Below are positions 34,129 through 38,406 of a stretch of DNA of 64,000 bases, in pieces. The position numbers were made by a program, and so were the translations under genes. Source of the stretch: Patescibacteria group bacterium. GTDB taxonomy: Bacteria; Patescibacteriota; Patescibacteriia; Magasanikbacterales; JBBTQS01. Positions within the stretch are counted from its first letter, which is position 1, and each line of letters starts with the position of its first letter. The notes under the pieces are model-generated. The model did no database searches and had not been told where the DNA came from. It saw nothing but the letters and a program-made list of their open reading frames with translations. The stretch is taken from positions 741 to 64,740 of the forward strand of contig JBBTQS010000001.1 of the NCBI GenBank assembly GCA_038065555.1. The letters run 5' to 3'.

Positions 34129-34157
34129 TTGACAGGATTTGAGATATCTGATATGGT
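34129..34157 (+). promoter_or_regulatory. Sigma70-like promoter candidate (TTGACA-N17-TATGGT)
   Basis: Seen directly. Lies upstream of the GC-rich lipoprotein gene and leaves a 5' UTR of about 250 nt. Confidence 0.3.
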
Positions 34158-34405
34158 GCTCACTCGACGTCACGACATTGTCGCGACGCCGTGTTGAACA
34201 TTGCAAATTCTGCTCAACATCATTTGATAGGCACGCGACACATGTGTTCCACCACATGCATATGTGGCGCGCGCCTATCGATTTGGGGATTTCCTCATCG
34301 AACCGGCAATGGCGCGCGTCTGGTCCCGCAGTGGGGCCAGTGCACGACTGGAATGTGGATTACCGCGAACGCAATGAGGTGTTCGCGCTTGAGGAGAGTA
34401 TCCCG

Positions 34406-35353
34406 ATGAAGAGCAAGATGATGAAGAACGGCGCCATGTTGGCGTTCCTGTGCCTGTTCGCCGTCGCCTGCGGCAGCGATCCCTCGGCCACCGGCGCGAT
34501 CGGCTCCCCGCCGACCGCGACCAACGACGAGTGCCCCTCCGGGGAGTGCAACAGCGGCACCAACCTGGCCACCAACGAGATCGCGCTGCAAGGCGTCGAT
34601 TGCGCGGGTGAGACGCCGGAAGAGGCCGACGCGATGTGCGCCGAGGCTCTGGACGCGGCCATGCTGAGTGGTCAAGTCCAAGGCATCTGCGTGGACGAAG
34701 GTTCAGCGCGCTGCGGCGAGGGGTCCTGTTGGATCACCGTCGAGCTCGGCTGCTTCGTCGAAGAGTGCAAGGTGCCCGAGGAGTGCGACGACGGCAACCC
34801 CTGCACGGCGGACTTCTGTCTGTCGAGCAACACGTGCTACAACCCGGCGGCGGTCAATGACGGCATGTCATGCGACGACGGCGACGCGTGTACGGAAGGC
34901 GACGCGTGTGAGGCTGGCTCCTGTTCGTGGAGCACGCCGAAGAACTGTGCGGACGGCAACGTCTGCGACGGTATGGAGACCTGTTCGTCGCCCAGCGGAG
35001 CGTGCATCGAAGGCACTCCGCCGGTCGTCGACGACGGCAACACCTGCACGACGGACTCGTGCGATCCGGTGACGGGCGTCACGAACACGCCGCTCGCGGA
35101 CGGGACCGGCTGCATGACCGACGAGCACGGCTGCACGACGCAGCAGTGCTGGGACGGTGCGTGCAAGGTGACGTCCAAGGACGACGCCGCCTGCGCCGAC
35201 GACAACACCTGCACGCTCGACTACTGCCACTCGGTCGACGGGTGCAAGTGGACGAGCCTCGCCGGTTCGGTCTGCGGGGAGAACATGACGTGCATGGAGG
35301 CGGCCGAAGAGGGAGCCGCTCCCATTTGCACCGAAGACCTCCCCCCGGCCTGA
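34406..35353 (+). CDS. Cys-rich lipoprotein, compositionally foreign (about 68% GC)
   Basis: GAGGAG Shine-Dalgarno 8 nt upstream. Lipoprotein signal MKSKMMKNGAMLAFLCLFAVAC|GSD. Repeats of the form CDDGNPCT.D.C, CDDGDACTEGDAC, DDGNTCTTDSCD and ADDNTCTLDYC. GC3-biased codons, unlike flanking genes. Confidence 0.8.
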   Translation: MKSKMMKNGAMLAFLCLFAVACGSDPSATGAIGSPPTATNDECPSGECNSGTNLATNEIALQGVDCAGETPEEADAMCAEALDAAMLSGQVQGICVDEGSARCGEGSCWITVELGCFVEECKVPEECDDGNPCTADFCLSSNTCYNPAAVNDGMSCDDGDACTEGDACEAGSCSWSTPKNCADGNVCDGMETCSSPSGACIEGTPPVVDDGNTCTTDSCDPVTGVTNTPLADGTGCMTDEHGCTTQQCWDGACKVTSKDDAACADDNTCTLDYCHSVDGCKWTSLAGSVCGENMTCMEAAEEGAAPICTEDLPPA

Positions 35354-35657: not shown

Positions 35658-35731
35658 GGACCGGTAGTTCAGCTGGTTAGAATGCCGCCCTGTCACGGCG
35701 GAGGTCGCGGGTTCGAGTCCCGTCCGGTCCG
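35658..35731 (+). tRNA. tRNA-Asp (anticodon GTC)
   Basis: Manual cloverleaf: acceptor GGACCGG/CCGGTCC; D-arm GTTC-AGCTGGTTA-GAAT; anticodon stem CCGCC/GGCGG with loop CTGTCAC; T-arm GCGGG-TTCGAGT-CCCGT; discriminator G. No encoded CCA. Confidence 0.9.
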
Positions 35732-35738
35732 CACATGT

Positions 35739-35762
35739 GTCCACCCGAGAGGGTGGACTTTT
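35739..35762 (+). terminator. Rho-independent terminator after tRNA-Asp
   Basis: GTCCACCC-gaga-GGGTGGAC followed by TTTT. Confidence 0.6.
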
Positions 35763-35766
35763 GCTT

Positions 35767-36261
35767 TGTTGATTGCTCGGACGAGACTACGATCGAAGGC
35801 AACGTGGAAATGGATGAGGCTTTTATTGGCGGACGTTCAGATAGAGCACACAAGGTTACATCCAAAACCATTGTAATTGCCGCTCTAGAACGTGAGGGGG
35901 ATTTGCGAGCGCAGACGAGCCAGATACCACTGCTTCATCTATCGGTTAATTTTTGCGGGACGATATAGAAAAGGAAGAAACTCGTTTGTTCACGGACAAG
36001 AGTAATAGTTATGGACGCACAGGTAAGGAGTACGATCGCTTCTCCGTCAATCACTCACGAGGCGAGTACGTTCGTGGTGATGTGTATGTAAACAATGTGG
36101 AGAGCTTTTGGTCTCATTTCAAGCGTAGCCTTACAGGAACGCACAAGACTATTTCGAAGAAGTATTTGCAGACGTATTTGGACGGGTTTGTTTTCCATTA
36201 TAACAACCGACACAGCGACAGACTGCGCTTTGAGACTTTGCTCGGTGCTTTGGTGAGATAA
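35767..36261 (+). pseudogene. Transposase pseudogene (IS1595 family), frameshift near 35953-35968
   Basis: Same evidence as the mobile-element entry. The two ORF pieces 35735..35968 and 35953..36261 are in different frames. Confidence 0.7.
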
Positions 36262-36296
36262 CGCGACGGAGGGTGGAAAGAAATGAGGTTTTAGTA

Positions 36297-36328
36297 TTGT
36301 TGTTGGCCATATAGAGGCATGGTATAGT
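36297..36328 (+). promoter_or_regulatory. Promoter candidate with extended -10 (TTGTTG..TGgTATAGT) for the small-gene operon
   Basis: Seen directly. An AAGGA Shine-Dalgarno follows, 7 nt before ATG 36352. Confidence 0.4.
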
Positions 36329-36351
36329 AACGATGAAGTAAGGACAATTTT

Positions 36352-36579
36352 ATGGCCATAGAACTAACGTTTCCTAAAGATGATGAGATGGACGCCCACA
36401 TTGACAATGGGCATCTTGTTGCATTAAGAAAAATAGCGACTGATTACAACCTCAAAAGTGAAAAAGAAGCACTGAGTTTCTTGCTTGCTATTATATCACA
36501 AGCAAATGGCTTACCTATCGAAATAAATGGTAGCAAATATTTGCCTTCTGATTCGCTTAAAAAGGAACAGCCAAAATAG
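36352..36579 (+). CDS. Hypothetical small protein (75 aa), AT-rich island gene 1
   Basis: Good SD/ATG context. Acidic and soluble. Its stop is 1 nt before the next ATG. Confidence 0.5.
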   Translation: MAIELTFPKDDEMDAHIDNGHLVALRKIATDYNLKSEKEALSFLLAIISQANGLPIEINGSKYLPSDSLKKEQPK

Positions 36580-36580
36580 T

Positions 36581-36829
36581 ATGGCGAAAGGAGATTTTGA
36601 TGCGCCCGGTGAGCTAAAAAGAATCGAGGACGCAAATGAAGGTGTTAATTTTGATAAGAAGGTTGGAGAATCGGTACGGAGATCTACAGACGTACAAACG
36701 CAAATTAAGGCCGTTGTTTGGTGTTTGCTAAAAGAAAAGATAATCTGGATTGTTCTTGGTGCATCAGCTTTTGCTGTGCTAGAAATTTTGAAAGAATTGG
36801 GTACAGCTTTAATAAAAAAAATACCGTAA
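36581..36829 (+). CDS. Hypothetical small tail-anchored membrane protein (82 aa), AT-rich island gene 2
   Basis: Translationally coupled to gene 1. C-terminal TM helix IIWIVLGASAFAVLEIL. Confidence 0.5.
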   Translation: MAKGDFDAPGELKRIEDANEGVNFDKKVGESVRRSTDVQTQIKAVVWCLLKEKIIWIVLGASAFAVLEILKELGTALIKKIP

Positions 36830-36854
36830 AATTTTTATTCTCAATTGTGTCCCT

Positions 36855-37055
36855 ATGTACTGGAAAGTTTTGGCAACCACCGCACTCCTTTTTGCAGTCC
36901 TTTCTGCCTGCTTTTCTGCATACATTGCGGTAAAAAAATACGATTTAAGCGTACTCGATGCTGCGACAATAAGATGCTCTCAAGCATTCAACGGTGCGAA
37001 TTTAGAGTTCTGTGTAAAAGTCATGGTGGAACAACGTATCTTGATGAATCGGTAG
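36855..37055 (+). CDS. Hypothetical small membrane/lipoprotein-like protein (66 aa), AT-rich island gene 3
   Basis: N-terminal hydrophobic segment ending LSAC. No clear SD. Confidence 0.35.
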   Translation: MYWKVLATTALLFAVLSACFSAYIAVKKYDLSVLDAATIRCSQAFNGANLEFCVKVMVEQRILMNR

Positions 37056-37096
37056 CAAAGGTGACTCACACTTGTGTTTGGGTGTTGACAAACATC

Positions 37097-37126
37097 TTGC
37101 AACCCAGAGTCGACATGGTGTACAAT
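37097..37126 (+). promoter_or_regulatory. Sigma70-like promoter candidate TTGCAA-N18-TACAAT
   Basis: Seen directly. The predicted TSS is near 37134. Confidence 0.35.
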
Positions 37127-37133
37127 CAATACA

Positions 37134-37316
37134 GATCAGTGTGAATTCAATTCTCTGTTTCTAGCCAGAGAGAGCGTCATTCAATCCAATGCACACGGAT
37201 TGACCATCAAGAGTGCTACCTTGCCGAAACGAAAGTTTCGTCAGGTGCTAGAACCACTGCTGACGGACTGTGAAAGCAGACGTAGGCAGGGTAGACGCTC
37301 TTGGTGGTTTTTATTA
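37134..37316 (+). ncRNA. Candidate structured non-coding RNA (identity unknown)
   Basis: No credible ORF. A promoter-like element lies upstream. Internal hairpins include CGAAAC-GAAA-GTTTCG (GNRA tetraloop), TTCTCTG..CAGAGAG and CGTCAG..CTGACG. A long-range closing stem AGAGCGTC(37172-79)/GACGCTCT(37291-98) is followed by UGGUGGUUUUUAUUAU. The segment GUGAAAGCAGACGUAGGCAG loosely resembles the SRP-RNA helix-8 3' strand GGAAGCAGCCAAGGCAG. Confidence 0.3.
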
Positions 37317-37381
37317 TCTGCTTAGCAAATCAGTTCTCTGCACCAGCTGGTCAATGCTAAGTACCAGATAACGAGACACGT

Positions 37382-37546
37382 ATGACAAAGATTTGTCGTC
37401 CGTGGATCACCTTGCGCAACGGGAAGCGGCTTTACGCATCCCAGCGAGGCAAGCGTGTGTTCTGCTTCTTTGTTGAGGACAAAATCCTCGATAAAAAAGA
37501 AGAACCAGTGGTTACCGCCACTGATCCCGCCATTTAGCGATGGTAC
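37382..37546 (+). CDS. Possible small ORF (54 aa; MTKICRPWITLRNGKRLYASQRGKRVFCFFVEDKILDKKEEPVVTATDPAI)
   Basis: ATG-started, basic N-terminus, ends immediately before an intrinsic terminator. Below the 60-aa track cutoff, so found by manual translation. No SD. Confidence 0.25.
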
Positions 37547-37548
37547 TG

Positions 37549-37578
37549 GAACCCCGAGCAATCGGGGTTTTCAGTTTT
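37549..37578 (+). terminator. Rho-independent terminator
   Basis: CCCCGA-gcaa-TCGGGG followed by TTTTCAGTTTTTA. Confidence 0.6.
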
Positions 37579-37764
37579 TATCACCTCTAGGGCGATATGT
37601 CAATATCATACCATACTCACTTGTGGATAGATTGTTATGTCTTGAGGGGATATGTCCTTTCTGACTGGCAGGTTGTTGAAAAAAACACCACCCCGACCAC
37701 CATCTCCCGCGTGAAGCAGAAGTTGGTGATCGGGGTGAGTTGTTTTTCGTTTGGCTTTCTCGAG

Positions 37765-38283
37765 CTACTCCTCGAGCGCACGCGGGACGTCGATGCCCCA
37801 CTGCATCCCGTACCGCCCCAGATCGCCGGTGAGCTGGGTCCACAATTCGTACTCGCCCGCGGGGAACTCGACGCCGCAGTGCTTGAACAGCTCGCGCCAG
37901 GGGGCGAAGTGTCTCTCGTTTCGCTCGTTGGAGAGCTTGATGAGGGACTTCCTCTCACGCACCTCCAACTCGGCCCGTGACAGGGTCTCGAGATTGATCT
38001 CGGGCGGGGTCGTGAACACGTGGTCCTCGCCCACGAGCTGGATCCACCACTGGTCGTGGGAACCGAGCTGAGCCTTCGTCCGGGTGGTCACGACGTAGAC
38101 CGTGTATCCCTCCTGGAGGGCGTACTCCAGCGCCCCGCGGGAGTACATGTTGCTCTCCTTCACGCCGCGGCTCGCCTGCTCCTCCGTCGGCCGGAATACG
38201 GACGCGGGCTCGGAGGGGTGTTGTGGGGTGAGATCGCTCTGAATGTCGCTCGTGGAAAGAACAACGACAGTCTGCTTTGACAT
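37765..38283 (-). CDS. Hypothetical protein (172 aa), GC-rich (about 62%) orphan gene
   Basis: ATG at 38283 with GGAGCGAAGG upstream. Compositionally unlike its neighbours. No recognisable motif. Confidence 0.6.
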   Translation of the reverse strand: MSKQTVVVLSTSDIQSDLTPQHPSEPASVFRPTEEQASRGVKESNMYSRGALEYALQEGYTVYVVTTRTKAQLGSHDQWWIQLVGEDHVFTTPPEINLETLSRAELEVRERKSLIKLSNERNERHFAPWRELFKHCGVEFPAGEYELWTQLTGDLGRYGMQWGIDVPRALEE

Positions 38284-38406
38284 GTACCTTCGCTCCTGTG
38301 GGACTTTGCCCACGGTGATCTTTTCCGCAGGGATTGCAGAAAACAATAAATAATAACACAAAAATGGTCTTTTGTCAAGTTGTTGGGGGTGGTGTACCAT
38401 TGCCCC

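Follow-up and report, generated by a model that had tools for sequence, protein, structure and literature searches.

A conserved folded leader RNA, a candidate transcription attenuator, upstream of a small mobile-element ORF in Patescibacteria

A 64,000-nucleotide stretch of contig JBBTQS010000001.1 from a Patescibacteria group bacterium (the window, that is, the whole stretch of DNA analysed here) contains a compact module: a promoter, a leader of about 250 nt, an open reading frame (ORF) of 51 amino acids, and a terminator (Table 1). Its carriers are phages and mobile elements with an integrase, of which at least some belong to Patescibacteria. A sequence-only reading of this DNA had pointed out a candidate structured non-coding RNA upstream of a small ORF, whose length it gave as 54 instead of 51 amino acids. 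The promoter, the CGAAAC-GAAA-GTTTCG hairpin (37225-37240), the other hairpins, the long-range pair AGAGCGTC/GACGCTCT, and the sequence GGTGGTTTTTATTAT (37303-37317) are all found where that reading had placed them. The flagged stretch is an evolutionarily conserved folded non-coding RNA, which forms the leader of the small mobile-element ORF. It is an RNA family absent from Rfam, of a known regulatory kind and of unusual architecture. The promoter and the structured plus-strand RNA occupy 37097-37381, and the element reaches the AUG at 37382.

Table 1. Positions of the promoter, RNA elements, ORF and antisense features of the module in the window.
Feature	Positions	Strand	Description
Sigma-70-type promoter	37097-37126	+	TTGCAA (37097-37102), 18-nt spacer, TACAAT (37121-37126); promoter scan, 9/12 matches
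Hairpin P1	37151-37172	+	7-bp stem, loop UUUCUAGC; 5/7 stem pairs changed on both sides
Kiss, 5′ half	37159-37165	+	P1 loop bases UUCUAGC; complementarity to the P3b loop
J1/2 segment AGAGCGUC	37171-37178	+	5′ strand of the alternative helix (candidate antiterminator); partner 37294-37301
Hairpin P2	37181-37203	+	UCAAUCC/GGAUUGA; seen in 10/11 members, none in L093
P3 stem	37204-37225 with 37285-37307	+	22 bp, A37295 bulged; minimum free energy fold; closes the four-way junction
P3a	37226-37239	+	Loop GAAA; part of the four-way junction
P3b	37240-37264	+	Loop bases 37247-37253 (GCUAGAA) are the 3′ half of the kiss; part of the four-way junction
P3c	37268-37279	+	Loop GAAA; part of the four-way junction
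U-rich tract UUUUUAUUAUCU	37308-37319	+	Directly 3′ of P3; its 3′ part is strand Z1 of P4
P4 domain	37314-37371	+	Extended hairpin between the U tract and the AUG
P4 Z1:Z2	37314-37320 with 37365-37371	+	UUAUCUG with CAGAUAA; extended fold
P4 Y1:Y2	37321-37326 with 37356-37361	+	CUUAGC with GCUAAG; extended fold
P4 X1:X2	37329-37333 with 37347-37351	+	AUCAG with CUGGU; extended fold
P4 X2:X3	37347-37351 with 37363-37367	+	X2 alternatively pairs with X3 (ACCAG); 92% paired, 0/500 shuffles match
51-aa ORF MTKICRPWITLRNGKRLYASQRGKRVFCFFVEDKILDKKEEPVVTATDPAI	37382-37537	+	Conserved core ICRPWITLRNGKRLYA..GKRAFCF
A run and hairpin H2	37493-37498 (A run); 37506-37511 with 37518-37523 (H2)		CAGUGG with CCACUG; within the ORF, near its 3′ end
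Intrinsic terminator of the module	37548-37581	+	GGAACCCCGAGCAAUCGGGGUUUU then CAGUUUUUAU; terminator scan
Candidate convergent promoter	37575-37603	-	TTGACA (TGTCAA on the plus strand, 37598-37603), 17-nt spacer, TAAAAA (37575-37580)

The promoter scan returned the same TTGCAA-N18-TACAAT match that had been proposed from the sequence, and transcription would start near 37133. Among the 11 loci having the full form of the RNA (see below), 7 have a −10 box that ends 251-270 nt 5′ of the ATG; in L086, which has a reduced form, this distance is 242 nt. In all, 8 homologous loci have a promoter match at a kept offset, with the −10 box ending 242-270 nt 5′ of the ATG. The plus strand from 37134 to 37316 folds with a minimum free energy (MFE) of −69.4 kcal/mol, compared with −48.1 ± 3.8 kcal/mol for dinucleotide shuffles (z = −5.6, 0/200 as good), while the fold of the opposite strand is weaker (z = −3.8). 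The backbone of the MFE fold is a 22-bp stem (P3) that closes a four-way junction with three short hairpins (P3a, P3b, and P3c); two more hairpins (P1 and P2) lie 5′ of it, and UUUUUAUUAUC lies 3′.

Is this RNA a housekeeping RNA, a chance fold, or a missed coding gene? The sequence-only reading had noted a similarity to helix 8 of the signal recognition particle (SRP) RNA and had also considered a 6S-like RNA. Besides the SRP likeness, only the presence of ORFs of 30-41 aa in the window copy of the leader speaks for this group of explanations. I ran cmscan against the 4227 families of Rfam 15, using the gathering score for the whole window and E ≤ 10 for 36800-37700 and for 37125-37385 (261 nt). 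There was no match to the window RNA or to that of the homologous locus L019 at E ≤ 10, nor to the leader in 16 homologous loci at the gathering score. Thus, SRP RNA (RF00169, RF01854, and the clan), 6S RNA (RF00013), tmRNA, and RNase P RNA were rejected as candidates for lack of a covariance-model match, and the helix-8 motif is not conserved across the homologues. ARAGORN found a tRNA-Asp as its sole match in the window and no tmRNA. The places where the RNA occurs, a low-GC islet and phage-like contigs, are not a core-genome setting. No frame stays open in every one of the leader homologues, three of which have stops in all six frames, and the strong covariation described below rules out a chance fold. 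There is next to no chance that any explanation of this group is correct, and the structured non-coding RNA that had been suspected is borne out by the fold energy, the covariation, and the closed frames.

The route to the homologues was the 51-aa ORF. About 90 loci (numbered with the prefix L) came from scanning viral, genome, and metagenome collections and from looking up related proteins, and their upstream regions were searched with a profile first and then with a covariance model (R1). The full RNA was found in 11 non-identical sequences with scores of 77-168 bits: the window, L004, L010, L019, L030, L031, L034, L085, L087, L092, and L093. All 11 RNAs precede the same conserved ORF, with their 3′ ends 60-75 nt before the ATG. 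Thus, of the roles that had been considered for this RNA, that of a leader of the downstream small ORF holds in 11/11 homologues. They originate from Patescibacteria and from phage-like contigs, and at least two members are within Patescibacteria. The full RNA is rare in the searched collections (the 11 non-identical examples) but is very well supported. Some loci retain the 3′ domain alone, without P1-P3 (L029, L086, L027/L028, and L088). In L029, L086, and L027/L028, a plain hairpin followed by a U-rich run stands in place of the four-way junction, while L088 has a promoter directly 5′ of the 3′ domain.

Other searches gave little. A blastn search in a distant mode had no match in phage and plasmid collections, and a self-blast and repeat search of the window revealed no second copy. 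The genome with the window was assembled from Hainich groundwater, and look-ups of the exact proteins led to no contigs other than three from this site, in two ENA assemblies and one Logan assembly, which are identical to the window over 36000-38000. Two RNA-pattern scans of viral contigs gave an already known locus plus chance matches. A literature search on structured RNAs in Patescibacteria and on the motif of the small protein found nothing specific, though it did not cover the supplements of a phage structured-RNA survey.

The sequence-only reading had proposed covariation in homologues as a check. In the model-based alignment of the 11 sequences, 83.7% of the cells of the proposed structure are paired, and 32 of the 59 pairs have compensatory two-sided changes. 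None of 500 column shuffles reached the real alignment in any of five measures. When the 3′ partner was slid by 1-3 columns, the pairing fell to 35-48%.

As for the individual helices, 9 of the 22 pairs of the P3 stem are changed on both sides and 85% of its cells are paired, while its base CCAUC/GGUGG is nearly invariant. The sequence-only reading had taken the 8-bp pairing of AGAGCGTC with GACGCTCT as the helix that closes the domain; the dominant closing helix is instead the 22-bp P3 stem. The three junction hairpins have 69-94% of their cells paired. P2 is variable and weakly supported (60% of cells pair in the model alignment), and it probably acts as a spacer. The GNRA tetraloops, which had been put forward as a defining feature, did not hold up: the P3a loop is GAAA, GCAA, UUCG, CUCG, CUAG, or longer among the members, and the P3c loop varies too. 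The idea of a GNRA tetraloop-receptor contact was dropped, as these two loops are not conserved. The junction strands also vary in sequence and length (GGA, GA, AAA, and UA on one side; ACGUA, GGGA, and AAAC on the other). The bases that are invariant sit nearly all in helices or in the loops of P1 and P3b.

These two loops are complementary to each other. The P1 loop can form 6-8 contiguous Watson-Crick pairs with the P3b loop of the same RNA in 11/11 members, as against 2-5 pairs between loops of different types. There are 8 types of loop pairs in total: UUCUAGC/GCUAGAA, UUACUAGC/GCUAGUAA, UUUGAGC/GCUCAAA, UUCAUAG/CUAUGAA, UUCCAGC/GCUGGAA, UUCGUAG/CUACGAA, UUUCGAGC/GCUCGAAA, and CUAGUA/UACUAG. 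One A-U pair has been co-inserted among these types. In fixed alignment columns, 66/66 cells of the kissing helix are paired and 14 cells are changed on both sides; 0/500 shuffles match the paired cells, the double-change cells, or the covariation score, and 12-17/500 match two pair-count measures. The two loops thus form a kissing-loop, or pseudoknot, interaction, as judged from these complementary changes. The kissing helix varies no faster than the upper part of P3.

The long-range helix between AGAGCGTC (37171-37178) and GACGCTCT (37294-37301), which the sequence-only reading had described as closing a 127-nt domain, is real and covaries, but it is not a ground-state closure; it excludes the lower half of the 22-bp stem. 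Ten of the 11 homologues can form this alternative helix with 6-8 contiguous Watson-Crick pairs; L087 has 4 such pairs, or 8 pairs with G-U. The J1/2 strands of other members (AAAGGCGA, GGCGCAG, GAAGGCAA, AGAGCGAC, and GCGGCA) each fit their own P3 3′ strand. Cross-pairing amounts to 3-5 pairs for most combinations of different types and reaches 6-9 between closely related types. Since the same bases of the P3 3′ strand serve both helices, the alternative helix and the lower-middle part of P3 cannot coexist. In this competing part of P3, 3-8 of the 11 sequences are unpaired at six of the seven pairs (1/11 at the seventh), whereas at most 1/11 is unpaired in the stem base and in the upper P3 except its top pair. 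When the alternative helix is forced, even the best fold is less stable than the full-P3 fold by 6-14 kcal/mol, and the difference in the window is 5.9 kcal/mol. In attenuators, the terminator fold is usually the more stable one, and the antiterminator is a kinetic or stabilised state.

The terminal stem with a U tract, as noticed in the window, recurs throughout the family: P3 is followed by a U-rich tract in all members. Judged by eye from the alignment, U makes up about two thirds or more of the 9-10 bases 3′ of P3 in 11/11 members. A simple hairpin with a U-rich run is kept even in the reduced variants L029, L086, and L027. The P3 stem plus the U tract is the signature of an intrinsic terminator, at which transcription would end.

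Between the U tract and the AUG lies another conserved hairpin domain (P4). Its extended fold is 74% paired in 15 sequences, and 0-6 of 500 shuffles match each measure. P4 is present also in the members without P1-P3.

On balance, I lean towards the view that the leader is a cis-acting transcription attenuator, a terminator/antiterminator switch gating the small ORF. The element stands on the same strand between the promoter and the ORF in all 11 loci (7 of them with a promoter match at the kept offset), ends in a stem with a U tract, and has an alternative helix that excludes this stem. The proposed course is as follows. RNA polymerase would start near 37133 and make P1, the single-stranded J1/2, P2, and the three junction hairpins. 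The emerging 3′ strand of P3 would then have a choice of two partners. If it zips up with the 5′ strand, the 22-bp stem and the U tract would cause termination, giving an RNA of about 175 nt that ends near 37315. If 37294-37301 is captured by J1/2 (37171-37178), the lower P3 would stay unformed, and the polymerase would read through into P4 and the ORF; the read-through product would be the mRNA of the small protein. Because the kiss between P1 and P3b ties the J1/2-bearing arm to the junction, it is likely the element that biases the choice, in a direction that may be either of the two. Since the junction bases are not conserved, a metabolite is not the expected trigger of the switch; an effector RNA or protein would be, or else a cue of a kinetic or physical nature.

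Could the four-way junction with the kiss nevertheless be the aptamer of a metabolite or ion riboswitch, with P3 and the alternative helix as its expression platform? A riboswitch of the classical layout likewise has a complex fold, a tertiary contact over a long range, and two helices that exclude each other and end in a terminator. This reading is disfavoured because the junction strands are variable in sequence and length, with no ligand pocket visible, and because the reduced variants dispense with the whole junction, having a plain hairpin in its place. In addition, the regulated gene encodes a tiny mobile-element protein without a metabolic link. A riboswitch is very unlikely.

Several points weigh against the attenuator reading. 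The transcription start site and the termination at 37308-37319 are deduced from the sequence, which points to no ligand, tRNA, or protein as the effector. The U tract has interruptions (UUUUUAUUAUC); part of it is also a strand of Z1:Z2, which could be another reason for its conservation. A clear Shine-Dalgarno sequence before the AUG is missing in all members, and translation control is therefore not readable from the sequence. As to the statistics, the covariance-model alignment was fitted to the same structure that was under test, 3-4 rows of this alignment have their P1 stem out of register, and the 11 non-identical sequences amount to about 8 types, with L019/L031 and L010/L087 being closely related. 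Lastly, the attenuator model alone does not explain the antisense features at the 3′ end of the ORF, which are described below.

The RNA has its own promoter, a terminator-like end, and a very stable compact fold, and it sits in integrase-bearing and viral contigs. These traits would also suit a discrete trans-acting small RNA (sRNA), in which the transcript of about 175 nt is the product, exerting immunity or copy control on sibling or incoming copies, and the ORF is expressed by leak-through. The two complementary loops occur in 8 types among 11 sequences while their flanks are conserved, as would be seen for a specificity determinant. Since covariation cannot separate intramolecular from intermolecular kissing, a trans-acting reading resembling the CI RNA of phage P4 or c4 retains some weight. 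However, no third complementary site such as P4 seqC or P1 a2/b2 exists anywhere in the module; each loop core occurs once per module, except for a second P3b-loop core in L030, and none is near the ribosome-binding site or in the ORF. Rfam gave no match, be it to C4 or to another family. The ORF downstream forms a monocistronic unit closed by a terminator of its own, which leaves no lytic operon for the RNA to repress. The kissing helix, as said, evolves at a pace no higher than that of the upper P3. Also, the RNA was never met without the ORF; an RNA-only pattern scan of viral contigs led to the known locus alone. Such a trans-acting sRNA is thus rather unlikely. A related idea is that the P1-P3 RNA is a self-recognising switch that belongs to mobile elements or phages of Patescibacteria, where the terminated leader of about 175 nt acts in trans via its type-specific kissing loops on nascent leaders of the same type and so sets the termination of the small-protein gene. 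I consider this doubtful as well. If true, it would be an RNA-only immunity or copy-sensing circuit with the 7-bp loop pair as a specificity code, combined with the 3′ antisense RNA; it would also be a previously undescribed class of regulatory RNA in a lineage with almost no characterised regulatory RNAs.

What does the leader precede? In the ORF, the core ICRPWITLRNGKRLYA..GKRAFCF (also written RPWITLRNGKRLYA..GKRAFCF) is kept although the DNA has diverged, for the most part at third codon positions as judged by eye. Thus, the ORF is a real gene. A profile search found 718 clusters of the small-protein family at 50% identity, almost all of them stand-alone proteins of 40-75 aa. The small protein has no sequence match in Pfam, NCBIfam, PHROG, or PDB. 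It is basic and soluble-looking, and its predicted fold is beta-rich, without a hydrophobic helix or a transmembrane segment. In the AlphaFold model, residues 1-31 are confident and form four short strands and one helical turn, while the C-terminal tail is disordered. Foldseek found no significant structural neighbour (best E > 5). By eye, the protein recalls the arm-binding N-terminal domain of lambda integrase, which is in the Foldseek list at a probability of 0.09; this weak lead is not supported by the statistics. Downstream of the ORF, a GC-rich hairpin with a U-rich run was seen by inspection in 16/16 related loci.

A more distant member of the protein family (L005 / L011 3700-4000; JGI 3300013121, AT-rich) has a different leader, which model R1 does not detect. 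By eye, it has a hairpin with a GCAA loop, a stem followed by a U tract, and an AGGAGG Shine-Dalgarno sequence, and an integrase lies directly downstream. This leader may be an analogous one that arose independently or has diverged strongly.

The 3′ end of the ORF contains an A run, which is AAAAAAAGAAC in most members, shorter in the window and L030, and absent in L004. It is followed by hairpin H2. I compared these features in the window, L004, L010, L019, L027-L031, L034, L085-L088, L092, and L093. In H2, 97.8% of the cells are paired and 15 cells are changed on both sides (0/500 shuffles match); part of this compensation is non-synonymous (V..T to A..A). On the minus strand, the H2 region reads as a GC-rich hairpin followed by GUUCUUCUUUUUU / GUUCUUUUUUU, and the scan flagged it as an intrinsic terminator. 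A minus-strand promoter (at least 5/6 matches to TTGACA) within 170 nt past the stop codon was found in 12/15 loci, as against 2.3 by shuffles and 3 on the control strand. In six loci, the minus-strand −10 box ends 36-48 nt past the stop codon. The covarying H2 terminator and the convergent promoter suggest a cis-antisense RNA of about 75-110 nt; the candidate in the window would be about 75 nt long, with its 5′ end at about 37568 and its 3′ end at the H2 terminator, at about 37493. By eye, no minus-strand promoter or terminator was noticed within the leader of the window or L019, where no formal scan was made.

A −1 frameshift at A_AAA_AAA with H2 was judged less likely than the minus-strand terminator. 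The heptamer is in frame in most members. In most of the sequences read by eye, the −1 frame stops within 5-9 codons, so that the product would barely change. A second hairpin, H1 (GAGGA-CAAAA-UCCUC, 37476-37492), lies inside the ORF just 5′ of the A run. It appears to covary (GGAC/GUCC, GGAU/AUCC, CGC/GCG, and UCGAA/UUCGA), although the register in the MAFFT alignment is too inconsistent for a formal count.

Owing to these antisense features, a module like type I toxin-antitoxin systems is a serious companion hypothesis for the whole locus. In such a module, the folded 5′ untranslated region (UTR) would silence the mRNA, and the convergent antisense RNA of about 75-110 nt would control its stability. 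The covarying hairpin with the A run is a canonical minus-strand terminator, the minus-strand promoter lies just past the module far more often than expected, the setting is a mobile element, and the layout resembles those of txpA/RatA and bsrG/SR4. On the other hand, the protein is of the soluble, beta-rich sort described above, the promoter matches are matches to a weak criterion in AT-rich DNA, and the small protein is at most a putative toxin. The model itself leaves the alternative helix and the kissing loop unexplained. Type I toxin mRNAs are not known to have a terminator-type leader. As an account of the leader, this hypothesis is improbable, more so than the trans-acting ones.

In the window, the module lies in a low-GC islet (about 40% versus about 54% around), which begins right after a tRNA-Asp(GTC) gene (35658-35732). 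No integrase and no att-like direct repeat bounding the islet was found in a search of the window; thus, the islet looks like a decayed integrated element. In other loci, a tyrosine integrase is encoded within a few hundred bases of the module (L005, L010, L019, L085, and L087; 5 of roughly 20 loci with inspected flanks), and L010 and L011 are IMG/VR viral contigs. In other subfamilies, the ORF lies downstream of pairs of helix-turn-helix (HTH) and ImmA/IrrE (Peptidase_M78) genes, as supported by Pfam in L006/L007 and seen by eye in L012 and L024.

The islet spans 35658-37600 and contains the remnant of a frameshifted and truncated IS1595-family transposase (35735-36261) and three small ORFs without a family match (36352-36579, 36581-36829, and 36855-37055), the third of which encodes a hydrophobic N-terminus. 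To its right, an inverted repeat with 33-nt arms (37678-37748) lies between an A run and a T run (GAAAAAAACACCACCCCGACC...GGTGATCGGGGTGAGTTGTTTTTC) at the end of a minus-strand gene for a 211-aa protein (37765-38400). This repeat, which resembles a terminator for both directions, marks the islet's right border. Just upstream of the tRNA-Asp gene, a very GC-rich gene (34139-35353, about 67%) encodes a cysteine-rich, secreted-looking protein of 404 aa with Dictyostelium-type CTDC repeats (PF00526, E = 1.6e-10). In a metagenomic contig, L031, a LOOT RNA (Rfam RF03000, 82.7 bits) was found at 397-522, about 2.3 kb upstream of the module.

These results add a well-supported family that Rfam 15 lacks, a complex-folded RNA with a four-way junction, a kissing loop, and competing helices. 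The Patescibacteria are uncultivated, and their regulatory RNAs are essentially unexplored. As the leader controls, in the attenuator reading, a member of a widespread unannotated protein family, the RNA would offer an experimental handle on the function of the protein. The module of 0.5 kb also seems to hide an antisense terminator in its coding sequence, which would make it a compact example of overlapping constraints at the RNA and protein levels. For an attenuator, the architecture of the leader is unusual: the terminator stem is the closing helix of a folded domain, and an intramolecular kiss links the antiterminator arm to it.

How does this leader compare with known systems? SRP RNA and 6S RNA are in a similar size range and have a long imperfect helix, but the present RNA matches neither model and is a leader in mobile DNA that is always tied to one small ORF. 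It is closer to the terminator/antiterminator leaders (riboswitch platforms, T-box, PyrR, and TRAP), which are likewise promoter-proximal and have two exclusive helices sharing one strand, the more stable one being a stem with a U tract just upstream of the regulated ORF. Unlike those attenuators, it belongs to no catalogued family, its terminator stem closes a junction with variable bases, and an upstream hairpin kisses a hairpin inside the terminator domain. The CI RNA of phage P4 and the c4 RNA of P1/P7 (Rfam C4, RF01695) are also structured RNAs encoded by mobile elements in the leader before a small ORF, and they have a loop complementary to another leader segment that differs between related elements. 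The present leader differs from them in having no C4 match and only two partners, both of them hairpin loops and neither at the ribosome-binding site or a downstream target, and in preceding a monocistronic gene. In the plasmids pT181 and pIP501, as well as in R1 CopA/CopT and the Inc RNA of ColIb-P9, kissing chooses between leader folds, one of them a terminator, and the loops carry the specificity. Here, in contrast, the kissing partners are on the same strand of the same transcript, and no rep gene is present. Compared with txpA/RatA and bsrG/SR4, the module encodes no hydrophobic membrane peptide, its antisense RNA is a predicted one, and its leader is built around a terminator-like stem; yet it shares with them a small ORF, a long structured 5′ UTR, a candidate convergent promoter, a predicted antisense terminator within the ORF near its 3′ end, and a place in a prophage or mobile element.

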